Program-made: the position numbers and the translations under genes
Notes under the pieces: model-generated
What the model saw: the letters and a program-made list of their open reading frames with translations, nothing else
The model's database searches: none
Told to the model about the DNA's origin: nothing
Shown: positions 9,600 through 16,867 of the stretch, in pieces
Numbering within the stretch: position 1 is the stretch's first letter
Layout: each line of letters starts with the position of its first letter
Source: Bacteroidota bacterium
Lineage (GTDB): Bacteria; Bacteroidota; Bacteroidia; Bacteroidales; SZUA-534
Assembly: GCA_003250355.1 (NCBI GenBank)
Contig: QKGS01000087.1
Span: forward strand, 1,608 to 65,607
Reading direction: 5' to 3'
DNA length: 64,000 bases

Positions 9600-9643
9600 T
9601 AATGCAAGATACAATACAGGCTATTTATACAAAATTTTCAATT

Positions 9644-9883
9644 ATGAATATAAAGCAAAACATAAGCATTAGTAAAAACGGGTTTTTATTCGATGCCGAA
9701 ACAGGCGACTCTTATTCCGTTAATAAAACAGCAGCCGAAATACTCAACCTTATGAAAGAAGGGAAAAACGAATCGGAAATAAAAAATGCCATAGTAAGCA
9801 AATTTGAAGTTGACGAACTGGTATTTGAGCGCAACTACTATGAATTTACCAATTTGCTAAAGCATATGAATATTATGTACTAA
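9644..9883 (+). CDS. PqqD-family protein (RiPP recognition element-like); ORF track start is 9602, likely start is 9644
   Basis: 79 aa with the three-strand/three-helix PqqD pattern: GFLFDAETGDSYSVNKTAAEILNLMKEGKNESEIKNAIVSKFEV...F..LL. Confidence 0.85.
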   Translation: MNIKQNISISKNGFLFDAETGDSYSVNKTAAEILNLMKEGKNESEIKNAIVSKFEVDELVFERNYYEFTNLLKHMNIMY

Positions 9884-10025: not shown

Positions 10026-11075
10026 ATGAGTAATAAAAAACAAATAACCATAGCCATAACAGGGCTCAATAACGTAGACAACCCCGGCCCGGGTGTACCT
10101 GTAATACGAGGCATACGTGAATCGAAAGAGATAGATGCCCGAATTATAGGTTTGGCATACGAAAACCTTGAACCGGGCATATATATGGAAGGACTGGTAG
10201 ATAAAACCTACCAAATACCATATCCGTCGGCAGGTAAAGAAGCTGTATGGGAACGAATAATGGAAATACACGCACGTGAACACCTCAATGTAATATTCCC
10301 CAACTTCGATGCCGAGCTGTACACATTTATGCTCATGGAAAACGACCTAAAGGAAAAAGGTATAAATATGTTTATTCCTACCATGCAGCAATTCGAAGAA
10401 CGCCATAAAGCAAATCTCGATAAGTTTGGCGAAAAATACGACATAAAAGTTCCCAAAAGTGTAGCATTAGGCTCACTTAACGACATATCGAAAATACGCA
10501 ACGAATTTGAGTTCCCTGTTCTTGTAAAGGGGAAATACTACGATGCTTTTATAGCCTATAATACCGAGCAAATAATAAACCACTACAACAAAATATCGGC
10601 CAAATGGGGGTTGCCGGTTATAATACAGGAATTTATAAAAGGTACTGAGGTAAATGTTGTTGCACTAGGCGACGGAAACGGCAATACCGTTGGTGCTGTA
10701 CCTATGCGTAAACAATACATAACCGATAAAGGCAAAGCATGGGGCGGCATAGTTATAAACAATGAAAAGCTACTAAAAATAACCCGCGACATGATAGCAA
10801 AAACCCACTGGCGAGGCGGTCTTGAAATGGAAATAATACTTACCTCCGACAATCAATACTACCTTATAGAAATAAACCCCCGTTTGCCGGCCTGGGTATA
10901 TTTAGCAGTAGGTGCCGGACAAAACCTACCCGAAGCTATGGTAAAACTGGCTATGGGACAAGAAGTAGCCCCTTACGAAAATTACACTGCCGGTACTATG
11001 TTTATTCGTTACAGCTGGGATTTAATCGGTAGTATCACCGATTTTGAAAAACTGTCGTTATATGGCGAATTATAG
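10026..11075 (+). CDS. ATP-grasp domain protein (amide/peptide ligase-like)
   Basis: FPVLVKG, PVIIQEFIKGTE and YYLIEINPRL ATP-grasp motifs; N-terminal Rossmann-like IAITGLNNVDNPGPG. Confidence 0.88.
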   Translation: MSNKKQITIAITGLNNVDNPGPGVPVIRGIRESKEIDARIIGLAYENLEPGIYMEGLVDKTYQIPYPSAGKEAVWERIMEIHAREHLNVIFPNFDAELYTFMLMENDLKEKGINMFIPTMQQFEERHKANLDKFGEKYDIKVPKSVALGSLNDISKIRNEFEFPVLVKGKYYDAFIAYNTEQIINHYNKISAKWGLPVIIQEFIKGTEVNVVALGDGNGNTVGAVPMRKQYITDKGKAWGGIVINNEKLLKITRDMIAKTHWRGGLEMEIILTSDNQYYLIEINPRLPAWVYLAVGAGQNLPEAMVKLAMGQEVAPYENYTAGTMFIRYSWDLIGSITDFEKLSLYGEL

Positions 11076-11150: not shown

Positions 11151-12506
11151 ATGAAAGAGAGATATGAGAAACCGGTAATATCGAGAATAAACGCCGGTAT
11201 ACCCGATAAATTTGGAATGAGCAGCCGAATACGTCAGGTGAGTTCAATTAATAACGTACCTGTTCAACAAATAGTGGAACAATACGGTTCGCCTTGTTTT
11301 GTAATATCGGAACAAACTATACGCAACACTTATAAGGATGCTTACAGAGCCTTTTCAACACGATACCCAAAAGTGCAATTTGCATGGTCGTACAAAACCA
11401 ATTATCTCGATGCTGTATGCCAGGTGTTTCACAACGAAGGTTCATGGGCCGAAGTTGTTTCTATATTTGAATACGAAAAAGCTCTGGCAAATGGTGTTCC
11501 CGGTAACCGAATACTGTTTAACGGCCCCGAAAAATCGGCCGATGACCTTATAAAAGCTGTTCAAAACGGGTCATACATACATATCGACCATTTCGACGAA
11601 TTATATACCCTGATAGGTATAACCCAAAATGCAGATAAAACAGCAAAAGTTGCCATTCGTATAAATATGGATACAGGTGTGTATCCCAAATGGGACCGTT
11701 TTGGTTTTAATCTGGAGAACGGCGAAGCATGGAATGCAATTACCCGCATAATGATGCAGGACAAAATGGAGCTTGTGGGTTTGCACACTCACATAGGCAC
11801 ATATATGATGACACCCGACCCATATGGTGTAGCTGCTGCAAAAATGTCGAAACTGATGATTGACATAGAAAACCGCTTCAACCATACACTAACTTATATT
11901 GACCTGGGCGGTGGTTTTGCATCGAAAAATACCCTTAAAGGGGCTTACTTGCCGGGCAAAGATACCTGCCCATCGTTCGACCAATATGCCGATGCTATTA
12001 CCAATGCCATTATTTCGTCGGGTATTGATATTGACAAACTGCCTACACTTTTCCTTGAAACAGGCCGTGCTCTAATTGACGATGCCGGATACCTGATAGG
12101 TTCGGTAAAAGCAAACAAACGACTATCTGACGGCAGAAAATCACTCGTTATTGATATTGGTGTAAATAACCTGTTTACATCGTTTTGGTACAACCACGAT
12201 ATATTCCCGGCATTTACCGAAAGTAAAGTATTAGAAGACACTACCATATACGGACCGCTGTGTATGAACATTGATATAATTCGTGAAGCTATACTCTTCC
12301 CGCCACTAGAACCAGGCGATAACGTGGTGATTGAACGTATTGGTGCTTACAATATGACCCAATGGCTACAGTTCATTACATTACGACCCAACATAGTGTT
12401 AATAGACACTAAAGGACAAATGCACCTGATACGAAAACAAGAAACTATCGACACATTCAAAGCTCAGGAACAATACCCTGAACATCTGAAACCAAAGGAA
12501 ATTTAA
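11151..12506 (+). CDS. PLP-dependent fold-type-III decarboxylase (diaminopimelate/ornithine decarboxylase family), substrate unknown, with an N-terminal extension
   Basis: WSYKTNY (PLP lysine), ILFNGPEK, KFG-like RFG, LHTHIGT, DLGGGF, LETGRALI, GPLCMNIDI and GAY motifs. Confidence 0.88.
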   Translation: MKERYEKPVISRINAGIPDKFGMSSRIRQVSSINNVPVQQIVEQYGSPCFVISEQTIRNTYKDAYRAFSTRYPKVQFAWSYKTNYLDAVCQVFHNEGSWAEVVSIFEYEKALANGVPGNRILFNGPEKSADDLIKAVQNGSYIHIDHFDELYTLIGITQNADKTAKVAIRINMDTGVYPKWDRFGFNLENGEAWNAITRIMMQDKMELVGLHTHIGTYMMTPDPYGVAAAKMSKLMIDIENRFNHTLTYIDLGGGFASKNTLKGAYLPGKDTCPSFDQYADAITNAIISSGIDIDKLPTLFLETGRALIDDAGYLIGSVKANKRLSDGRKSLVIDIGVNNLFTSFWYNHDIFPAFTESKVLEDTTIYGPLCMNIDIIREAILFPPLEPGDNVVIERIGAYNMTQWLQFITLRPNIVLIDTKGQMHLIRKQETIDTFKAQEQYPEHLKPKEI

Positions 12507-12624: not shown

Positions 12625-14853
12625 ATGAATATAACAAAACAAAAAATATCAATACTTCTGACATCTGTACTAAACAGCTATTCGCAGGTATTTTTTTCAA
12701 ACAATATATTCCTTGCCATAATACTGCTTACGGTAAGCTTTTTCGATTATGTATCGGGTATTAGCGGCTTACTTTCTGTGGTAACCGGGGTGTTATTGGT
12801 TGAAGCCATGGGTATGGATAAGCGTACTATAAAAAGGGGGTTATACGGATTTAACAACCTGCTGGTTGGACTTGGTATAGGGTTAAATTTTCAGTTGTCG
12901 TTCGAGCTTATAGCAATAGTAATATTTGCTTCGCTGCTTACAAGTTTCTTCACATTTGCCTTACAAGGCATATTAGGAAAATATAACCTTTCGTATTTAA
13001 GTATACCATTTTTGTTTGCTATATGGATATCGCTTTTGGCAACTAACCGTTTTAGTGCCTTGGGGTTAAGTATTAGGGGAATATATTCATACAATGAGCT
13101 ATATTCTTTAGGGGGAGTTAGGCTGCTCAACATATATGAAAGTATAGAGCAGAGCCTGCCATTTGCTGTTGTTGTTTACTTCAAATCGCTTGGAGCTATA
13201 TTTTTTCAATACAGCATATTGGCAGGCATTCTTATTAGTTTAGGCATATTGGTATATTCACGAATAGTGTTTTCACTCTCGGTACTTGGATATTTTATGG
13301 CATATTTATTTTACAAAATATTTGGTGCCGATGTTACTCAACTTAGTTACAGCTATATAGGCTTTAACTACATACTGTCATCAATTGCCATTGGCGGTTA
13401 TTTTCTGTACCCATCGTTATATTCGTACCTTGCATCAATGCTCATAATGCCACTGGTGGTAATGATATCATTTGGCTTTGAGCAAATACTAATACCGTTC
13501 AGGCTGGCATTATATTCACTACCATTCAATATGGTTGTACTTATGTTTTTGTATGCTTTACGTTTCAGAACACACAGAGCCACAAAGCTTCGCGAAATAG
13601 TTGTACAACAAAATACACCGGAGCAAAACCTGTATCTGCAAACCAACTATGTAAACCGAATGCGCTCATCGGGTATAGTGTCGGTATCGCTACCGGTAAT
13701 GGGCAACTGGACAGTTAATCAGGGATACAATGGCAAACACACCCATAAAGGCGACTGGCGTCACGGTTTGGACATGGTAATAACCGACGACAAAGGCAAA
13801 GAATATCAACATGAAGGAAATATACTAACCGACTATTATTGCTACGGCAAAAGTGTTACAGCCCCTGCCGATGGTTATATTGTTGAAGTAGTAAACAATA
13901 TTGACGAAAATGCTGTTGGCGAAATAAATATATTGCAAAACTGGGGCAATACCATAGTTATAGAGCATTATCCGGGGTTATATTCACAGGTTAGCCACTT
14001 AATGAAAAACTCTGTAACAGTTAAAAAAGGCGATTTTGTAAAAAAAGGTCAGAACATAGCCAACGTAGGTAATACAGGGCGTTCGCCCTACCCTCACCTC
14101 CATTTTCAAATGCAGGCTTCACCATATATTGGCAGCAAAACTATTGACTATCCGCTAAGTAACTATATAACCTGTTTTAACAATGAGTGCAGATATCATG
14201 CCCACGGAACACCTGCCGAAGGGCAAATTCTGAGCAATGTAGTAACTACTCCTATTATAGCCAAGGCATTCAAATTTTCGCCCGGGCAGCAATACAGCTA
14301 TTCTATTTCATTCCCCGACGGTAAGCCTGAACGTTTCATTAACCTAGAACCCGAATATACTTTTGAAGTGCACATAGACATATATAAAAACACATACCTT
14401 GAATGTAAACAAACGGGTGCAAAAGCATGGTTCTATACCGACGGGCAAATGCACTATTTCTCAAACTATACCGGCAACAAAAACACATTCCTGTTTTACT
14501 TTATGCTTGCACTATTCAAAGTTGAACTTGGCTATTACAGCAATATTGTAATAAAAGATGAAATACCTGCTCACTTTACTTTTTCAGGATTAAAACTTAC
14601 AATTCAGGACTTTTTTGCACCATTTTTCCGATTTATAAAATCGAATTACACACTTAATTTCCAAAACATTGACGATGAATTTTCACCACAAAAAGTACAA
14701 ATACATTCTGAAATACAAAATATAGTTAACCTAAACAAACTTGAACAACTCACATTCAATACTACTATCGACAATAATGGTATTAAAGAAATTACAGTAA
14801 ATATTAACAGCGATATATTTCAGGCCAAATGCTTAAAAAAGGGACATTTATAA
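12625..14853 (+). CDS. Urea-transporter-family membrane domain fused to an M23 peptidase domain
   Basis: The N-terminal ~315 aa are hydrophobic with urea-transporter signatures (SYSQVFFSNN, GLYGFNNLL, LSIPF, GAIFFQ, IGFNYIL, YSLPFN). The central region has M23 features (THKGDWRHGLD, VTAPADG, WGNTIVIEH, SHL, VGNTGRSPYPHLHFQ). Confidence 0.85.
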   Translation: MNITKQKISILLTSVLNSYSQVFFSNNIFLAIILLTVSFFDYVSGISGLLSVVTGVLLVEAMGMDKRTIKRGLYGFNNLLVGLGIGLNFQLSFELIAIVIFASLLTSFFTFALQGILGKYNLSYLSIPFLFAIWISLLATNRFSALGLSIRGIYSYNELYSLGGVRLLNIYESIEQSLPFAVVVYFKSLGAIFFQYSILAGILISLGILVYSRIVFSLSVLGYFMAYLFYKIFGADVTQLSYSYIGFNYILSSIAIGGYFLYPSLYSYLASMLIMPLVVMISFGFEQILIPFRLALYSLPFNMVVLMFLYALRFRTHRATKLREIVVQQNTPEQNLYLQTNYVNRMRSSGIVSVSLPVMGNWTVNQGYNGKHTHKGDWRHGLDMVITDDKGKEYQHEGNILTDYYCYGKSVTAPADGYIVEVVNNIDENAVGEINILQNWGNTIVIEHYPGLYSQVSHLMKNSVTVKKGDFVKKGQNIANVGNTGRSPYPHLHFQMQASPYIGSKTIDYPLSNYITCFNNECRYHAHGTPAEGQILSNVVTTPIIAKAFKFSPGQQYSYSISFPDGKPERFINLEPEYTFEVHIDIYKNTYLECKQTGAKAWFYTDGQMHYFSNYTGNKNTFLFYFMLALFKVELGYYSNIVIKDEIPAHFTFSGLKLTIQDFFAPFFRFIKSNYTLNFQNIDDEFSPQKVQIHSEIQNIVNLNKLEQLTFNTTIDNNGIKEITVNINSDIFQAKCLKKGHL

Positions 14854-16259
14854 TTCTGCTTTTAATATTTGTTACTAATATAAAAGCTCAGAATACTTAC
14901 AATTATTCTATTGATACTATAACTTACAACCAATACCTTAACGGTAAATGGGAAGAACTTTTTGAATCAGTAACCAAAGCTAATACATCGGGAGTCAGCT
15001 TTTATTACCTTACACTGCGAGGTGCTTTTGCTGCATATTACACACAACACTACAGTAAAGCTGTAACAATGTTCAGGCAAGCCGAACAACAGCAACCATT
15101 AAATTATACAGCCAAAGAAATACACCATTTGTCGGCAATATATGCCGGTATGGAGCTTGAGCAAATTCGAACCTACGACTCATTGCCTGCAACAACAAAA
15201 CCTAATTACAAAAATCCTCACCACAAGCTTTTTGAATCGGTATGTGTAGAATCGGGAATAAATACCAATAACAATTTTAACAATATTATTAATACCAAAC
15301 CAAATGTAAATAATGCCTTGTATGCTGAACGAAATTTGCATAAACAAACACTCTATAACGGTATTATATTAACAAACTCCATAAACAAAAAACTTAAATT
15401 AATACAGTCATTTCAATATATTTATGTGAGCCGGGCAACCAGTTTTTATATTGGAAATACTACACCAGATGTTACAACACCGATAACTCCAACCAACCCA
15501 TATAATCCATTACCTCCTCCACCAAATCAGCCACGTTTAAAAGCGGCTTCGTTAACAACCGGCACCGAAGCACATTTCAATACACAATCAACTCAGATTC
15601 AATACTTTTTAAGTTTAAAATACAACATTAACGACAAAGTACTTATAACCCCTGCTTTTACTTACGTAAATTATAATACAGGTACAGTAAATATTGATAC
15701 CAACAGTACAGGCATTTATTATTCAAACCACTTTAACCAAAAAGGAACTCAAACATATTTAATATTAAATATTGCCGGAGTATTCAACAGAAGTATATTT
15801 GCTGTAAACACAAATTACCTTATAGCAGAATACATTTCCCGATGGCAAAATGGTATTAGTGCAAAATTGTATCCATTTGCGTCAAAAAGGCTTTATACCG
15901 AAGGTGAGTTTTACATAAGTACAGGTAGTAACATATCCACAACACAGGTATTGAAAGGTAGTATCGGATATTATTTTAATAATATTTCGATTGAGGCTAA
16001 CTATACAACCGGTACACTATCAAACTTTGCCGACAATAACGGATTATACATTTACAACACAAAAGAGACAATAAATACAACAAAAGGTGTATCAATAACA
16101 GCTAATATTATCAAAAACAAGCTGTGGTTATCGGCTTATTACAAGTATATTACATATAATTCAGCGTATACTGTATATATAAATTCTACATCAAATAACA
16201 ATATCAATTTTGAACATAACAACCACTCAATAACAGGAGGTATAACATGGAAATTTTAA
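14829..16259 (+). CDS. Hypothetical secreted/outer-membrane protein (helical N-terminus, probable beta-barrel C-terminus)
   Basis: Signal peptide ending IKA-Q, alternating aromatic/polar beta-strand pattern, terminal GGITWKF. It overlaps both neighbouring genes, consistent with an operon. Confidence 0.65.
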   Translation: MLKKGTFIILLLIFVTNIKAQNTYNYSIDTITYNQYLNGKWEELFESVTKANTSGVSFYYLTLRGAFAAYYTQHYSKAVTMFRQAEQQQPLNYTAKEIHHLSAIYAGMELEQIRTYDSLPATTKPNYKNPHHKLFESVCVESGINTNNNFNNIINTKPNVNNALYAERNLHKQTLYNGIILTNSINKKLKLIQSFQYIYVSRATSFYIGNTTPDVTTPITPTNPYNPLPPPPNQPRLKAASLTTGTEAHFNTQSTQIQYFLSLKYNINDKVLITPAFTYVNYNTGTVNIDTNSTGIYYSNHFNQKGTQTYLILNIAGVFNRSIFAVNTNYLIAEYISRWQNGISAKLYPFASKRLYTEGEFYISTGSNISTTQVLKGSIGYYFNNISIEANYTTGTLSNFADNNGLYIYNTKETINTTKGVSITANIIKNKLWLSAYYKYITYNSAYTVYINSTSNNNINFEHNNHSITGGITWKF

Positions 16260-16867
16260 AACAAATCACATTAGTTTCAGTATTGTCAATACTTAGTTTT
16301 ACTATTGTTTCACAAGAAACAGAACCAATGGCAAAAGCTTTTATAAAGAGTTTTGAACTCGAAAATACAGGAAAATACAGCGAAGCTGCCGATATTATTA
16401 TAAGTTCATACAACAAAGAGAGTTATGAGTGCAATATGCGTCTGGGCTGGTTATACTACAAAGCCAACAACTACGATAACTCTGCCAAATACTACTATAT
16501 AGCCGGTAAGCTTATGCCCTATTCTGTTGAAGCAAAACTTGCATTAACCCTTCCACTATCGGAACAAAACAAATGGGACGACATAATGCAAGTATATAAA
16601 GATGTGCTGGCAATAGACTCAAAAAACTACAAGGCATTATATAACCTTGGGCTTATATACTATAACCGCAGCCTGTTTTACGCAGCATTCGACAACTTTA
16701 AAATACTCAACAATCTTTACCCTACCGATTACAGCGCATCGCTTATGTATGCGTGGAGTAATGTAATGCTTGGAAAAAACAGGGAAGCAAAAGTACTGTT
16801 CAACAAAATACTTTTGCTCTATCCGTCCGATAAATCGGCAACTGAGGGGTTGAGTATTTTGGAATAA
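16247..16867 (+). CDS. Tetratricopeptide-repeat protein, exported
   Basis: Signal peptide ending IVS-Q. TPR-like repeats: MRLGWLYYKANNYDNSAKYY, ALYNLGLIYYNRSLFYAA, KVLFNKILLLYPSD. Confidence 0.8.
   Translation: MEILKQITLVSVLSILSFTIVSQETEPMAKAFIKSFELENTGKYSEAADIIISSYNKESYECNMRLGWLYYKANNYDNSAKYYYIAGKLMPYSVEAKLALTLPLSEQNKWDDIMQVYKDVLAIDSKNYKALYNLGLIYYNRSLFYAAFDNFKILNNLYPTDYSASLMYAWSNVMLGKNREAKVLFNKILLLYPSDKSATEGLSILE

Follow-up and report, generated by a model that had tools for sequence, protein, structure and literature searches.

The decarboxylase gene and its N-terminal tail

The DNA analysed here, referred to as the window, is a whole stretch of 64,000 nucleotides from a Bacteroidota bacterium (assembly GCA_003250355.1, contig QKGS01000087.1, positions 1,608 to 65,607 of the forward strand). 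This report concerns the N-terminal tail of a decarboxylase encoded in an operon of the window, and a PqqD-like protein, encoded upstream in the same operon, which resembles the recognition elements (RREs) of pathways for peptides that are made on ribosomes and modified after translation (RiPPs). An earlier note on this DNA, made from the sequence alone, had proposed that the PqqD-like protein may dock on this tail as an RRE docks on a leader peptide. The gene, its tail and the two conserved blocks of the tail are located as follows (aa, amino acids; PLP, pyridoxal phosphate).

11151–12506, + strand: alanine-racemase-fold PLP decarboxylase of 451 aa, third gene of a co-oriented operon
11151–11216, + strand: N-terminal tail of the decarboxylase, MKERYEKPVISRINAGIPDKFG, a putative built-in RRE recognition sequence (from translation, codon conservation and a structure model)
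11163–11180, + strand: core motif Y5-E-K-P8-V-I10, a case of [Y/W]xxPx[L/V/I/F/A], conserved across phyla
11205–11219, + strand: second conserved block D19-K20-F21-G22-M23, conserved among homologues

The first 22 codons of the gene translate to MKERYEKPVISRINAGIPDKFG, the same letters as those given for the tail in the earlier note. The Pfam domains Orn_Arg_deC_N and Orn_DAP_Arg_deC were found in the protein, and its matches to LysA, FslC, the Pfam Orn/DAP/Arg decarboxylase models and the solved structure 7KH2 start at residues 29–63. An AlphaFold model of the decarboxylase, built on a 72-sequence alignment, had a mean predicted local distance difference test (pLDDT) score of 87.7 and an ordered fold from about residue 31. 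Because the profile and structure matches start at residues 29–63 and order in the model starts at about residue 31, the extension of about 30 residues that had been placed ahead of the decarboxylase fold is real. When the decarboxylase was modelled alone, tail residues 1–24 had pLDDT values below 50; a nearly invariant sequence that finds no place in a monomer model typically belongs to a segment that takes its fold on a partner.

The closest solved structure to the decarboxylase is 7KH2, the N-citrylornithine decarboxylase FslC (5.5e-60). Scores of 220 bits against the LysA model TIGR01048 (cut-off 297.9) and of 224 bits against the FslC model NF041039 (cut-off 500) were obtained, and by these curated cut-offs the enzyme is classed as neither LysA nor FslC, though it is nearest to both. 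Related genomes (e.g. L113) hold a separate LysA-like paralogue that lacks the tail.

Conservation of the tail

The earlier note had made its proposal depend on conservation of the motif among syntenic homologues and on a start codon that includes it, and both were borne out. The motif stands in the same register in 120/120 of the closest database homologues (65–76% identity); two with truncated N-termini keep the DKYG block only. Chance would not come near this degree of conservation. The tail consensus of these closest homologues is Y/F-E-K/R-P-x-I-x-K/R-I-x-A-G-x-x-D-K-F/Y-G-M. An in-frame TAA stands 12 codons upstream, and from there to the motif the ATG at 11151 is the sole start codon. 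Across 91 distinct loci, P8, G16, K20 and G22 are nearly invariant at codon positions 1 and 2 and near random at position 3 (entropy 0.8–2.0 bits), so the tail is translated and is selected as protein. A start codon lying only downstream of the motif was ruled out, as codons 1–22 are under selection at the amino-acid level.

Met23 (11217–11219), which directly follows the KFG residues of the second block, is conserved in more than 90% of the close Bacteroidota homologues and not in other phyla. It may be a second, internal start used in this clade only, which would give a tail-less enzyme.

Cluster representatives at 34–47% identity keep the pattern [Y/W]-E-x-P-x-[I/L]-x-[K/R]-h-x-x-G-x-x-N-K-F-G, and the most distant motif-bearing lineages retain Y-E-P-P-x-[I/L/M/V] alone, with KFG lost. 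Assembly GCA_001872725.1 belongs to a second phylum, in which the motif takes the forms W-x-K-P-T-L-T-P-H, W-E-P-P-M-I-Q-P or Y-Q-K-P-T-I. The core [Y/F/W]-x-x-P-x-[I/L/V] is thus the deepest-conserved part of the tail, and it was found in more than 200 homologues from Bacteroidota, Ignavibacteria, the second phylum and several metagenomic lineages. Pfam and NCBIfam scans of the tail peptides alone gave no match, which is uninformative, and the tail profile searched against PDB sequences gave one chance thioredoxin match only, the leader chains there being too short or too divergent.

One cluster representative, P0129 (871 aa), is a natural fusion of ATP-grasp and decarboxylase that keeps a weakened motif, AYVRPSISRH, in its linker; the motif therefore need not be at the extreme N-terminus.

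The PqqD-like protein resembles lasso-type RREs

The gene for the PqqD-like protein lies upstream in the same operon.

9644–9883, + strand: PqqD-like RRE, 79 aa counted from the Met at 9644 (Pfam PqqD 2.1e-8, above the cut-off; the longest open reading frame (ORF) starts at 9602)
9722–9724 (N27), 9833–9835 (N64), 9842–9844 (E67) and 9845–9847 (F68), + strand: PqqD residues equivalent to leader contacts, from the alignment to TbiB1

Alignments with homologues begin at about residue 14–15 of the longest ORF, and the Met at 9644 appears more likely to be the start than the codon at 9602. The lasso-peptide RREs TbiB1 (5V1U/5V1V, 5.9e-5) and TfuB1 (6JX3) were the only significant matches of the protein in the PDB. 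The alignment with TbiB1 is free of gaps and places N64 on D70, F68 on F74 and N27 on residue 33. Each of these is a known contact position: Asp70 of TbiB1/LppB hydrogen-bonds the leader Tyr, the Phe equivalent to TbiB1 F74 splits the binding cleft and packs on the leader Pro, and an Asn of LppB at the position aligned with TbiB1 residue 33 holds the kink at this Pro (PMC13381572). Among 111 PqqD homologues encoded in the operon, N27 is invariant (111/111), F68 is kept in 106, and little or no variation is seen at G13, F16, G21 and S23. Strong selection therefore acts on the apparatus that binds the peptide, though no peptide gene is present.

In a model of the orthologue from L065 (Labilibaculum sp.), strands at residues 14–17 and 22–26 and helices at 28–38, 43–53 and 58–74 were predicted with pLDDT values of 81–97. 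The protein thus has what characterises a lasso-B1-type RRE, namely a length of about 80–100 aa, a winged-helix fold in which three helices accompany a three-stranded sheet, and the three leader-contacting residues. Discrete RREs of lasso-peptide and linear polyphosphorylated peptide (LPP) systems bind the motif [Y/W]xxPx[L/V/I/F/A], and in the second RiPP family that uses this motif the precursors are 35–200 aa long (PMC13381572; PMC10368454). The Y5-E-K-P8-V-I10 of the decarboxylase fits the motif, as the earlier note had recognised, and Phe or Trp takes the first position in other lineages.

Several copies of the RRE escape Pfam or nearly so: the PqqD model has no recorded match for the copy of L096 and only weak matches for those of L095 and L109. 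In the second-phylum locus L095 (6090–6851; the same DNA as L096:6570–6851), one reading gives a 253-aa ORF that begins with a TetR-type helix-turn-helix (2e-9) and has PqqD as its C-terminal part, while another gene call gives the 93-aa PqqD part only. The longer ORF may be a fusion of a regulator with an RRE.

Co-occurrence of the tail with pqqD and absence of a free precursor

Two further operon genes, which flank the decarboxylase gene, are needed for the comparison of loci.

10026–11075, + strand: ATP-grasp ligase, PF15632 / PRK12767-like by family match; best structural match 2pn1
12625–14853, + strand: urea-transporter-like (UT) membrane domain fused to an M23 peptidase, syntenic in 80 loci

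A PqqD gene accompanies every motif-bearing decarboxylase gene that has enough flanking sequence. These comprise about 75 loci of Bacteroidota and Ignavibacteria, about 35 loci of the second phylum and the distant homologues P0124, P0126, P0131, P0137 and P0145; in the distant homologues and the second-phylum loci, the decarboxylase gene follows genes for PqqD and ATP-grasp. Seven homologues found outside the operon, a small sample (L143 at 45% identity, P0138 and P0140 at 39%, and four LysA-like paralogues at 25–33%), are without the tail motif, PqqD, ATP-grasp and the UT gene. At P0149, ATP-grasp is present, the tail is absent and PqqD is not directly upstream. It had been asked whether both the YxKPxI and the KFG motifs are conserved only where pqqD is adjacent; this holds for the YxxPxI core, with strict co-occurrence and seven out-of-operon homologues lacking both motif and pqqD, and only partly for KFG.

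In about 70 syntenic loci, neither the DNA upstream of pqqD nor that between the genes was found to hold a conserved small ORF. The genome, which is 99.98% complete, has one PqqD gene. In a six-frame scan of 42,200 ORFs of the genome, the strict motif was found at the N-terminus of the decarboxylase and of one 28-aa frame only. This 28-aa ORF, which lies on contig C30 and starts with MYDKPSIIRLMPG, was rejected as a free precursor because it is antisense inside a 364-aa ORF.

These results bear on the alternative that PqqD serves a free precursor which is encoded elsewhere or is too small to see, the enzyme tail being a competing mimic or unrelated. Small precursor genes are often missed, and P0142 has a PqqD with no motif on the decarboxylase, both of which favour this alternative. 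The lack of a conserved small ORF in the syntenic loci, the single PqqD gene and the lack of a motif-bearing intergenic ORF in the genome agree with the impression of the earlier note that there is no convincing free precursor, and the co-variation described below ties the RRE to the tail of the enzyme itself; a separate precursor is considered highly improbable. The decarboxylase is not a RiPP precursor either, since a folded enzyme of 451 aa bears the motif at its N-terminus, and the operon is not a lasso or other known RiPP cluster, having no short precursor and neither a B2 transglutaminase-like protease nor an asparagine-synthetase-like cyclase among its genes.

Co-variation of the tail with PqqD

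Each PqqD was paired with the tail of the decarboxylase from its own operon. In a first sample of 85 distinct pairs with Tyr or Phe at the first motif position, tail Tyr was always accompanied by Asp, Asn or His at PqqD residue 64 (41/41), and tail Phe by Tyr, Ser, Thr or Phe (44/44). The normalised mutual information between the Tyr/Phe state of the tail and PqqD column 64 was 1.0, with 0.53 for the next PqqD column; the best values among about 1,410 control columns were 0.745 in ATP-grasp, 0.68 in the UT-M23 protein and 0.60 in the decarboxylase. Residue 64 thus ranked first of the roughly 1,490 columns compared, and its pair with the tail position was also first among 1,738 tail-by-PqqD position pairs after average product correction (APC). 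In a second sample of 26 new genomes from other classes and families, 25 fit the same rule, so that the pooled counts are 63/63 for Tyr with D/N/H and 46/47 for Phe with Y/S/T/F.

Other positions co-vary as well. A Lys or Arg at tail position +2, counted from the Tyr, was paired with an acidic PqqD residue 67 in 99/99 pairs, and where this position is Pro or Leu, residue 67 is Gly, Asn or Val in 9/10. Tail positions +5 and +8 couple with PqqD residue 26, which is equivalent to a residue lining the second pocket. By analogy with the solved complexes, the pattern at residue 64 is the one expected of an acceptor for the Tyr hydroxyl, with a hydroxyl-bearing or bulky residue on the RRE when the tail has Phe. 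The co-variation at this residue ties the RRE to the enzyme's own tail.

The best control column, ATP-grasp alignment column 187, has Met with tail Phe and Glu, Lys or Gln with tail Tyr. It might mark a place where ATP-grasp touches the tail or PqqD.

Structure model of the tail with PqqD and ATP-grasp

In L065 the pqqD, ATP-grasp and decarboxylase genes lie in one reading frame, and a single chain was modelled from a straight read-through of the three, with stop codons replaced by Gly and the chain ended after decarboxylase residue 32. The alignment for this model consisted of in-frame pairs and unpaired homologues (108 rows). In the resulting AlphaFold model, tail residues 1–15 rose to pLDDT values of about 80–90, and the linkers and the KFG block stayed below 50. 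New strands were predicted at positions −2/−1 and +5 to +8 relative to the Tyr, together with a two-residue strand at PqqD residues 54–55. In the complexes of LppB and PbaB1, the N-terminal part of the leader is bonded through its backbone to the loop that precedes helix 3, and the RRE sheet is lengthened by the residues that follow the motif (PMC13381572). The modelled tail strands are in this canonical leader register.

Proposed docking of PqqD on the enzyme

The motif match, the co-occurrence with pqqD, the ordering of the tail in the AlphaFold model and the co-variation at residue 64 are four independent lines of computation that point to docking of PqqD on the enzyme N-terminus, which upholds, as a prediction, the central idea of the earlier note. 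Residues ~1–15 of the decarboxylase are probably a built-in RRE recognition sequence that is bound by the stand-alone PqqD-like protein in the manner of a lasso B1 protein. By homology to the solved complexes, Y5 would sit in a first pocket and be read by PqqD residue 64, the equivalent of Asp70 of TbiB1/LppB; P8 would lie against F68, and N27 would hold its kink; I10 would enter a second pocket; and residues +5 to +8 would be added as a strand to the RRE sheet.

Several points weigh against this docking. P0142 is a PqqD-linked decarboxylase with no recognisable motif, although it is the sole such case seen, and one Phe–His pair (L153) violates the residue-64 rule. On the ATP-grasp tree, the Tyr/Phe state switches about five to six times and residue 64 switches each time except in the His case; because only two to three of these switches are on well-supported branches, a sign test on independent pairs is unable to reach 0.05. 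The 26 added genomes did not raise the count of well-supported independent switches, so the formal test is still underpowered. The control columns of the rank comparison share the same tree, which answers the limit set by phylogeny in part and is not a formal test. In the L065 model, docking on PqqD rather than on ATP-grasp follows from strand positions only, and the modelled tail is tethered to ATP-grasp by a 19-residue linker. Finally, the tail may pack on the second subunit of a decarboxylase dimer, as the monomer model is blind to dimer contacts.

This last point belongs to a second alternative, that the tail belongs to the decarboxylase as an intrinsic arm, such as an active-site lid or a dimer clamp, which makes no contact with PqqD and resembles a leader by coincidence. 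N-terminal arms are known in this decarboxylase fold family, and neither the monomer model nor the underpowered sign test speaks against such an arm. It would leave unexplained, however, why, out of about 1,490 columns, the RRE's Tyr-binding position co-varies best, why the tail is absent from the out-of-operon homologues and why it becomes ordered in the model only with PqqD and ATP-grasp. An intrinsic arm is regarded as quite improbable.

If PqqD docks on the tail, it would bridge the ATP-grasp ligase and the decarboxylase into a complex, in which the amide product of the ligase would be handed directly to the decarboxylase. Such a bridged complex is likely because RREs normally also hold a partner enzyme. 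An RRE that holds both a peptide and an enzyme is seen with PqqD and PqqE (PMC10906245) and in the model of LppB with LppS (PMC13381572). Here pqqD is coupled to the ATP-grasp gene, whose product is the likely second partner of the RRE by analogy, and we infer that channelling is the purpose of the docking.

The KFG block and a covalent role for the tail

The K and G of the KFG block are about 98% conserved in the 91 loci. This conservation favours a third alternative, in which PqqD docks the tail for covalent work: ATP-grasp would load a carboxylate onto the KFG Lys, as in LysW- or BtrI-like systems, the decarboxylase would act on the tethered group, and its release would fall to the channel-fused M23 or SIR2 domain; or else the tail would be cut off like a leader. 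The nearest characterised decarboxylases, FslC and BtrK, use conjugates or carrier-bound substrates, and in L098 the M23 domain is replaced by SIR2, sirtuins being N-epsilon-acyl-lysine deacylases. The UT-SIR2 variant, however, is seen in one lineage only. Several in-system lineages, including L138, L142, P0122, P0128 and P0160, have Thr, Pro or His in place of the tail Lys, and the most distant of those that bear the motif have lost the whole KFG block. In the L065 model, moreover, the low-pLDDT KFG block is not placed in the ATP-grasp site. Since the Lys is not universal, a general mechanism of Lys modification is argued against, and a Lys tether as the general mechanism was downgraded. Covalent work on the docked tail is judged unlikely.

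A fuller version, in which the tail is a covalent carrier as well as a docking handle, is distinctly unlikely. The RRE would present the tail, ATP-grasp would link a substrate through an amide to the tail Lys, the decarboxylase would process the tethered cargo, and the channel-fused M23 or SIR2 domain would free the product by cleavage at the channel mouth, to be exported. If this were true, the enzyme would also be the carrier protein of its own substrate, and a chaperone of the RiPP type would read it.

Comparison with known systems

The proposed pair of PqqD and tail is most readily compared with the pairs of lasso B1 proteins and leaders (TbiB1-TbiA, TfuB1/FusB1-FusA and PbaB1-PbaA) and with LppB-LppA. 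As in these, the RRE is a stand-alone PqqD-fold protein of about 80 aa, the motif is [Y/W]xxPx[L/V/I/F/A], the Asp/Asn that reads the Tyr, the Asn at the Pro kink and the Phe that divides the cleft are in place, and the RRE sheet gains a β-strand from the residues that follow the motif, here according to the model. Unlike the lasso and LPP systems, the motif here is carried by a 451-aa PLP enzyme rather than by a short precursor with a modifiable core, and a B2 protease, a lasso cyclase, a kinase and a signal peptidase are all missing from the operon. The first motif position is also Phe as often as Tyr, with the RRE changed to match.

The arrangement is also similar to PqqD-PqqA-PqqE of PQQ biosynthesis, in which PqqD, a small chaperone, binds both a modifying enzyme and an N-terminal recognition stretch (PMC10906245). 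The operon differs from it in having neither a radical-SAM enzyme nor a free peptide. PqqA appears to have the same spacing, WxxPx[F/V]xx[L/I]xxG. The Pfam PqqA model PF08042 matched neither in this genome nor in any control genome, which makes its result uninformative.

With regard to chemistry, the operon resembles systems that ligate and then decarboxylate, such as FslA/FslC of rhizoferrin and BtrI/BtrJ/BtrK of the butirosin side chain, FslC and BtrK being the best characterised relatives of the decarboxylase. Both of these enzymes act on an amino acid that is already joined to another group; BtrK is carrier-dependent, and BtrJ is an ATP-grasp protein. Unlike these systems, the operon lacks an NIS synthetase and an acyl carrier protein, and neither of them is known to use an RRE or a decarboxylase tail.

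The nearest known concept is that of engineered fusions, in which leaders have been joined in cis to a lanthipeptide synthetase or a cyanobactin heterocyclase, where they engage the recognition domain. In such laboratory constructs the leader activates its own enzyme, whereas the arrangement in the operon is natural and widespread and links two different proteins. These comparisons suggest that RRE-leader recognition has moved onto an enzyme, which the RRE would grip in place of a free peptide; no such case was found in the literature searched. RREs are treated as markers of RiPP pathways and are used so by genome-mining tools. If the docking is true, there are 'orphan' RRE clusters, with no precursor, that do not belong among the RiPP clusters, and nature has put the RRE-leader interaction to new use as a general protein-protein docking module. 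The co-variation predicts partner preference, with Tyr tails preferring Asp or Asn at residue 64 and Phe tails preferring Tyr or Ser, and a handle on how the enzymes assemble would be a first step towards the function of the operon.

The operon, its spread and its variants

The remaining two genes of the operon follow the UT-M23 gene.

14829–16259, + strand: putative outer-membrane protein of 476 aa, whose counterpart in L098 has a weak Alginate_exp match
16247–16867, + strand: TPR protein of 206 aa, an operon gene

The order of the six genes is held in essentially all of 80 loci of Bacteroidota and Ignavibacteria where the contig reaches far enough. In the syntenic loci the genes are 10–50 bases apart or overlap, as pqqD and the ATP-grasp gene often do. 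Matches were found in more than 597 species-representative genome stretches; among sampled genomes, the operon was found in 31/401 of the phylum of the window and in 42/301 of the second phylum. Cultivable carriers include strains of Algoriphagus, Chitinophaga and Draconibacterium. Literature searches for this gene combination yielded no description of the operon. The ATP-grasp sequence had no match among solved structures in a sequence search, and its best structural match, 2pn1, is an uncharacterised protein.

Several variants of the operon were observed. In L098 (6051–7922), the single distant lineage with the UT-SIR2 fusion, the urea-transporter-like domain is joined to SIR2 (1.9e-40), and an extra 350-aa protein with no family match is encoded between ATP-grasp and the decarboxylase. 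SIR2 requires NAD, which suggests that the fused domain faces the cytoplasm. A double-length ATP-grasp protein (710–715 aa) follows PqqD in L107 (416–2563) and in the contig of P0142, where a 455-aa protein with no assignment is encoded upstream of PqqD. An extra 0.8–1 kb is present between the ATP-grasp and decarboxylase genes in L015, L027, L028, L030 and L071, and between pqqD and the ATP-grasp gene in L077 and L083. The operon is rearranged in L109 (261–8259): TPR, PqqD and ATP-grasp come first, followed by a TPR protein of 818 aa and then one of 325 aa without a family match, and last the decarboxylase, whose motif is YEPPRM.

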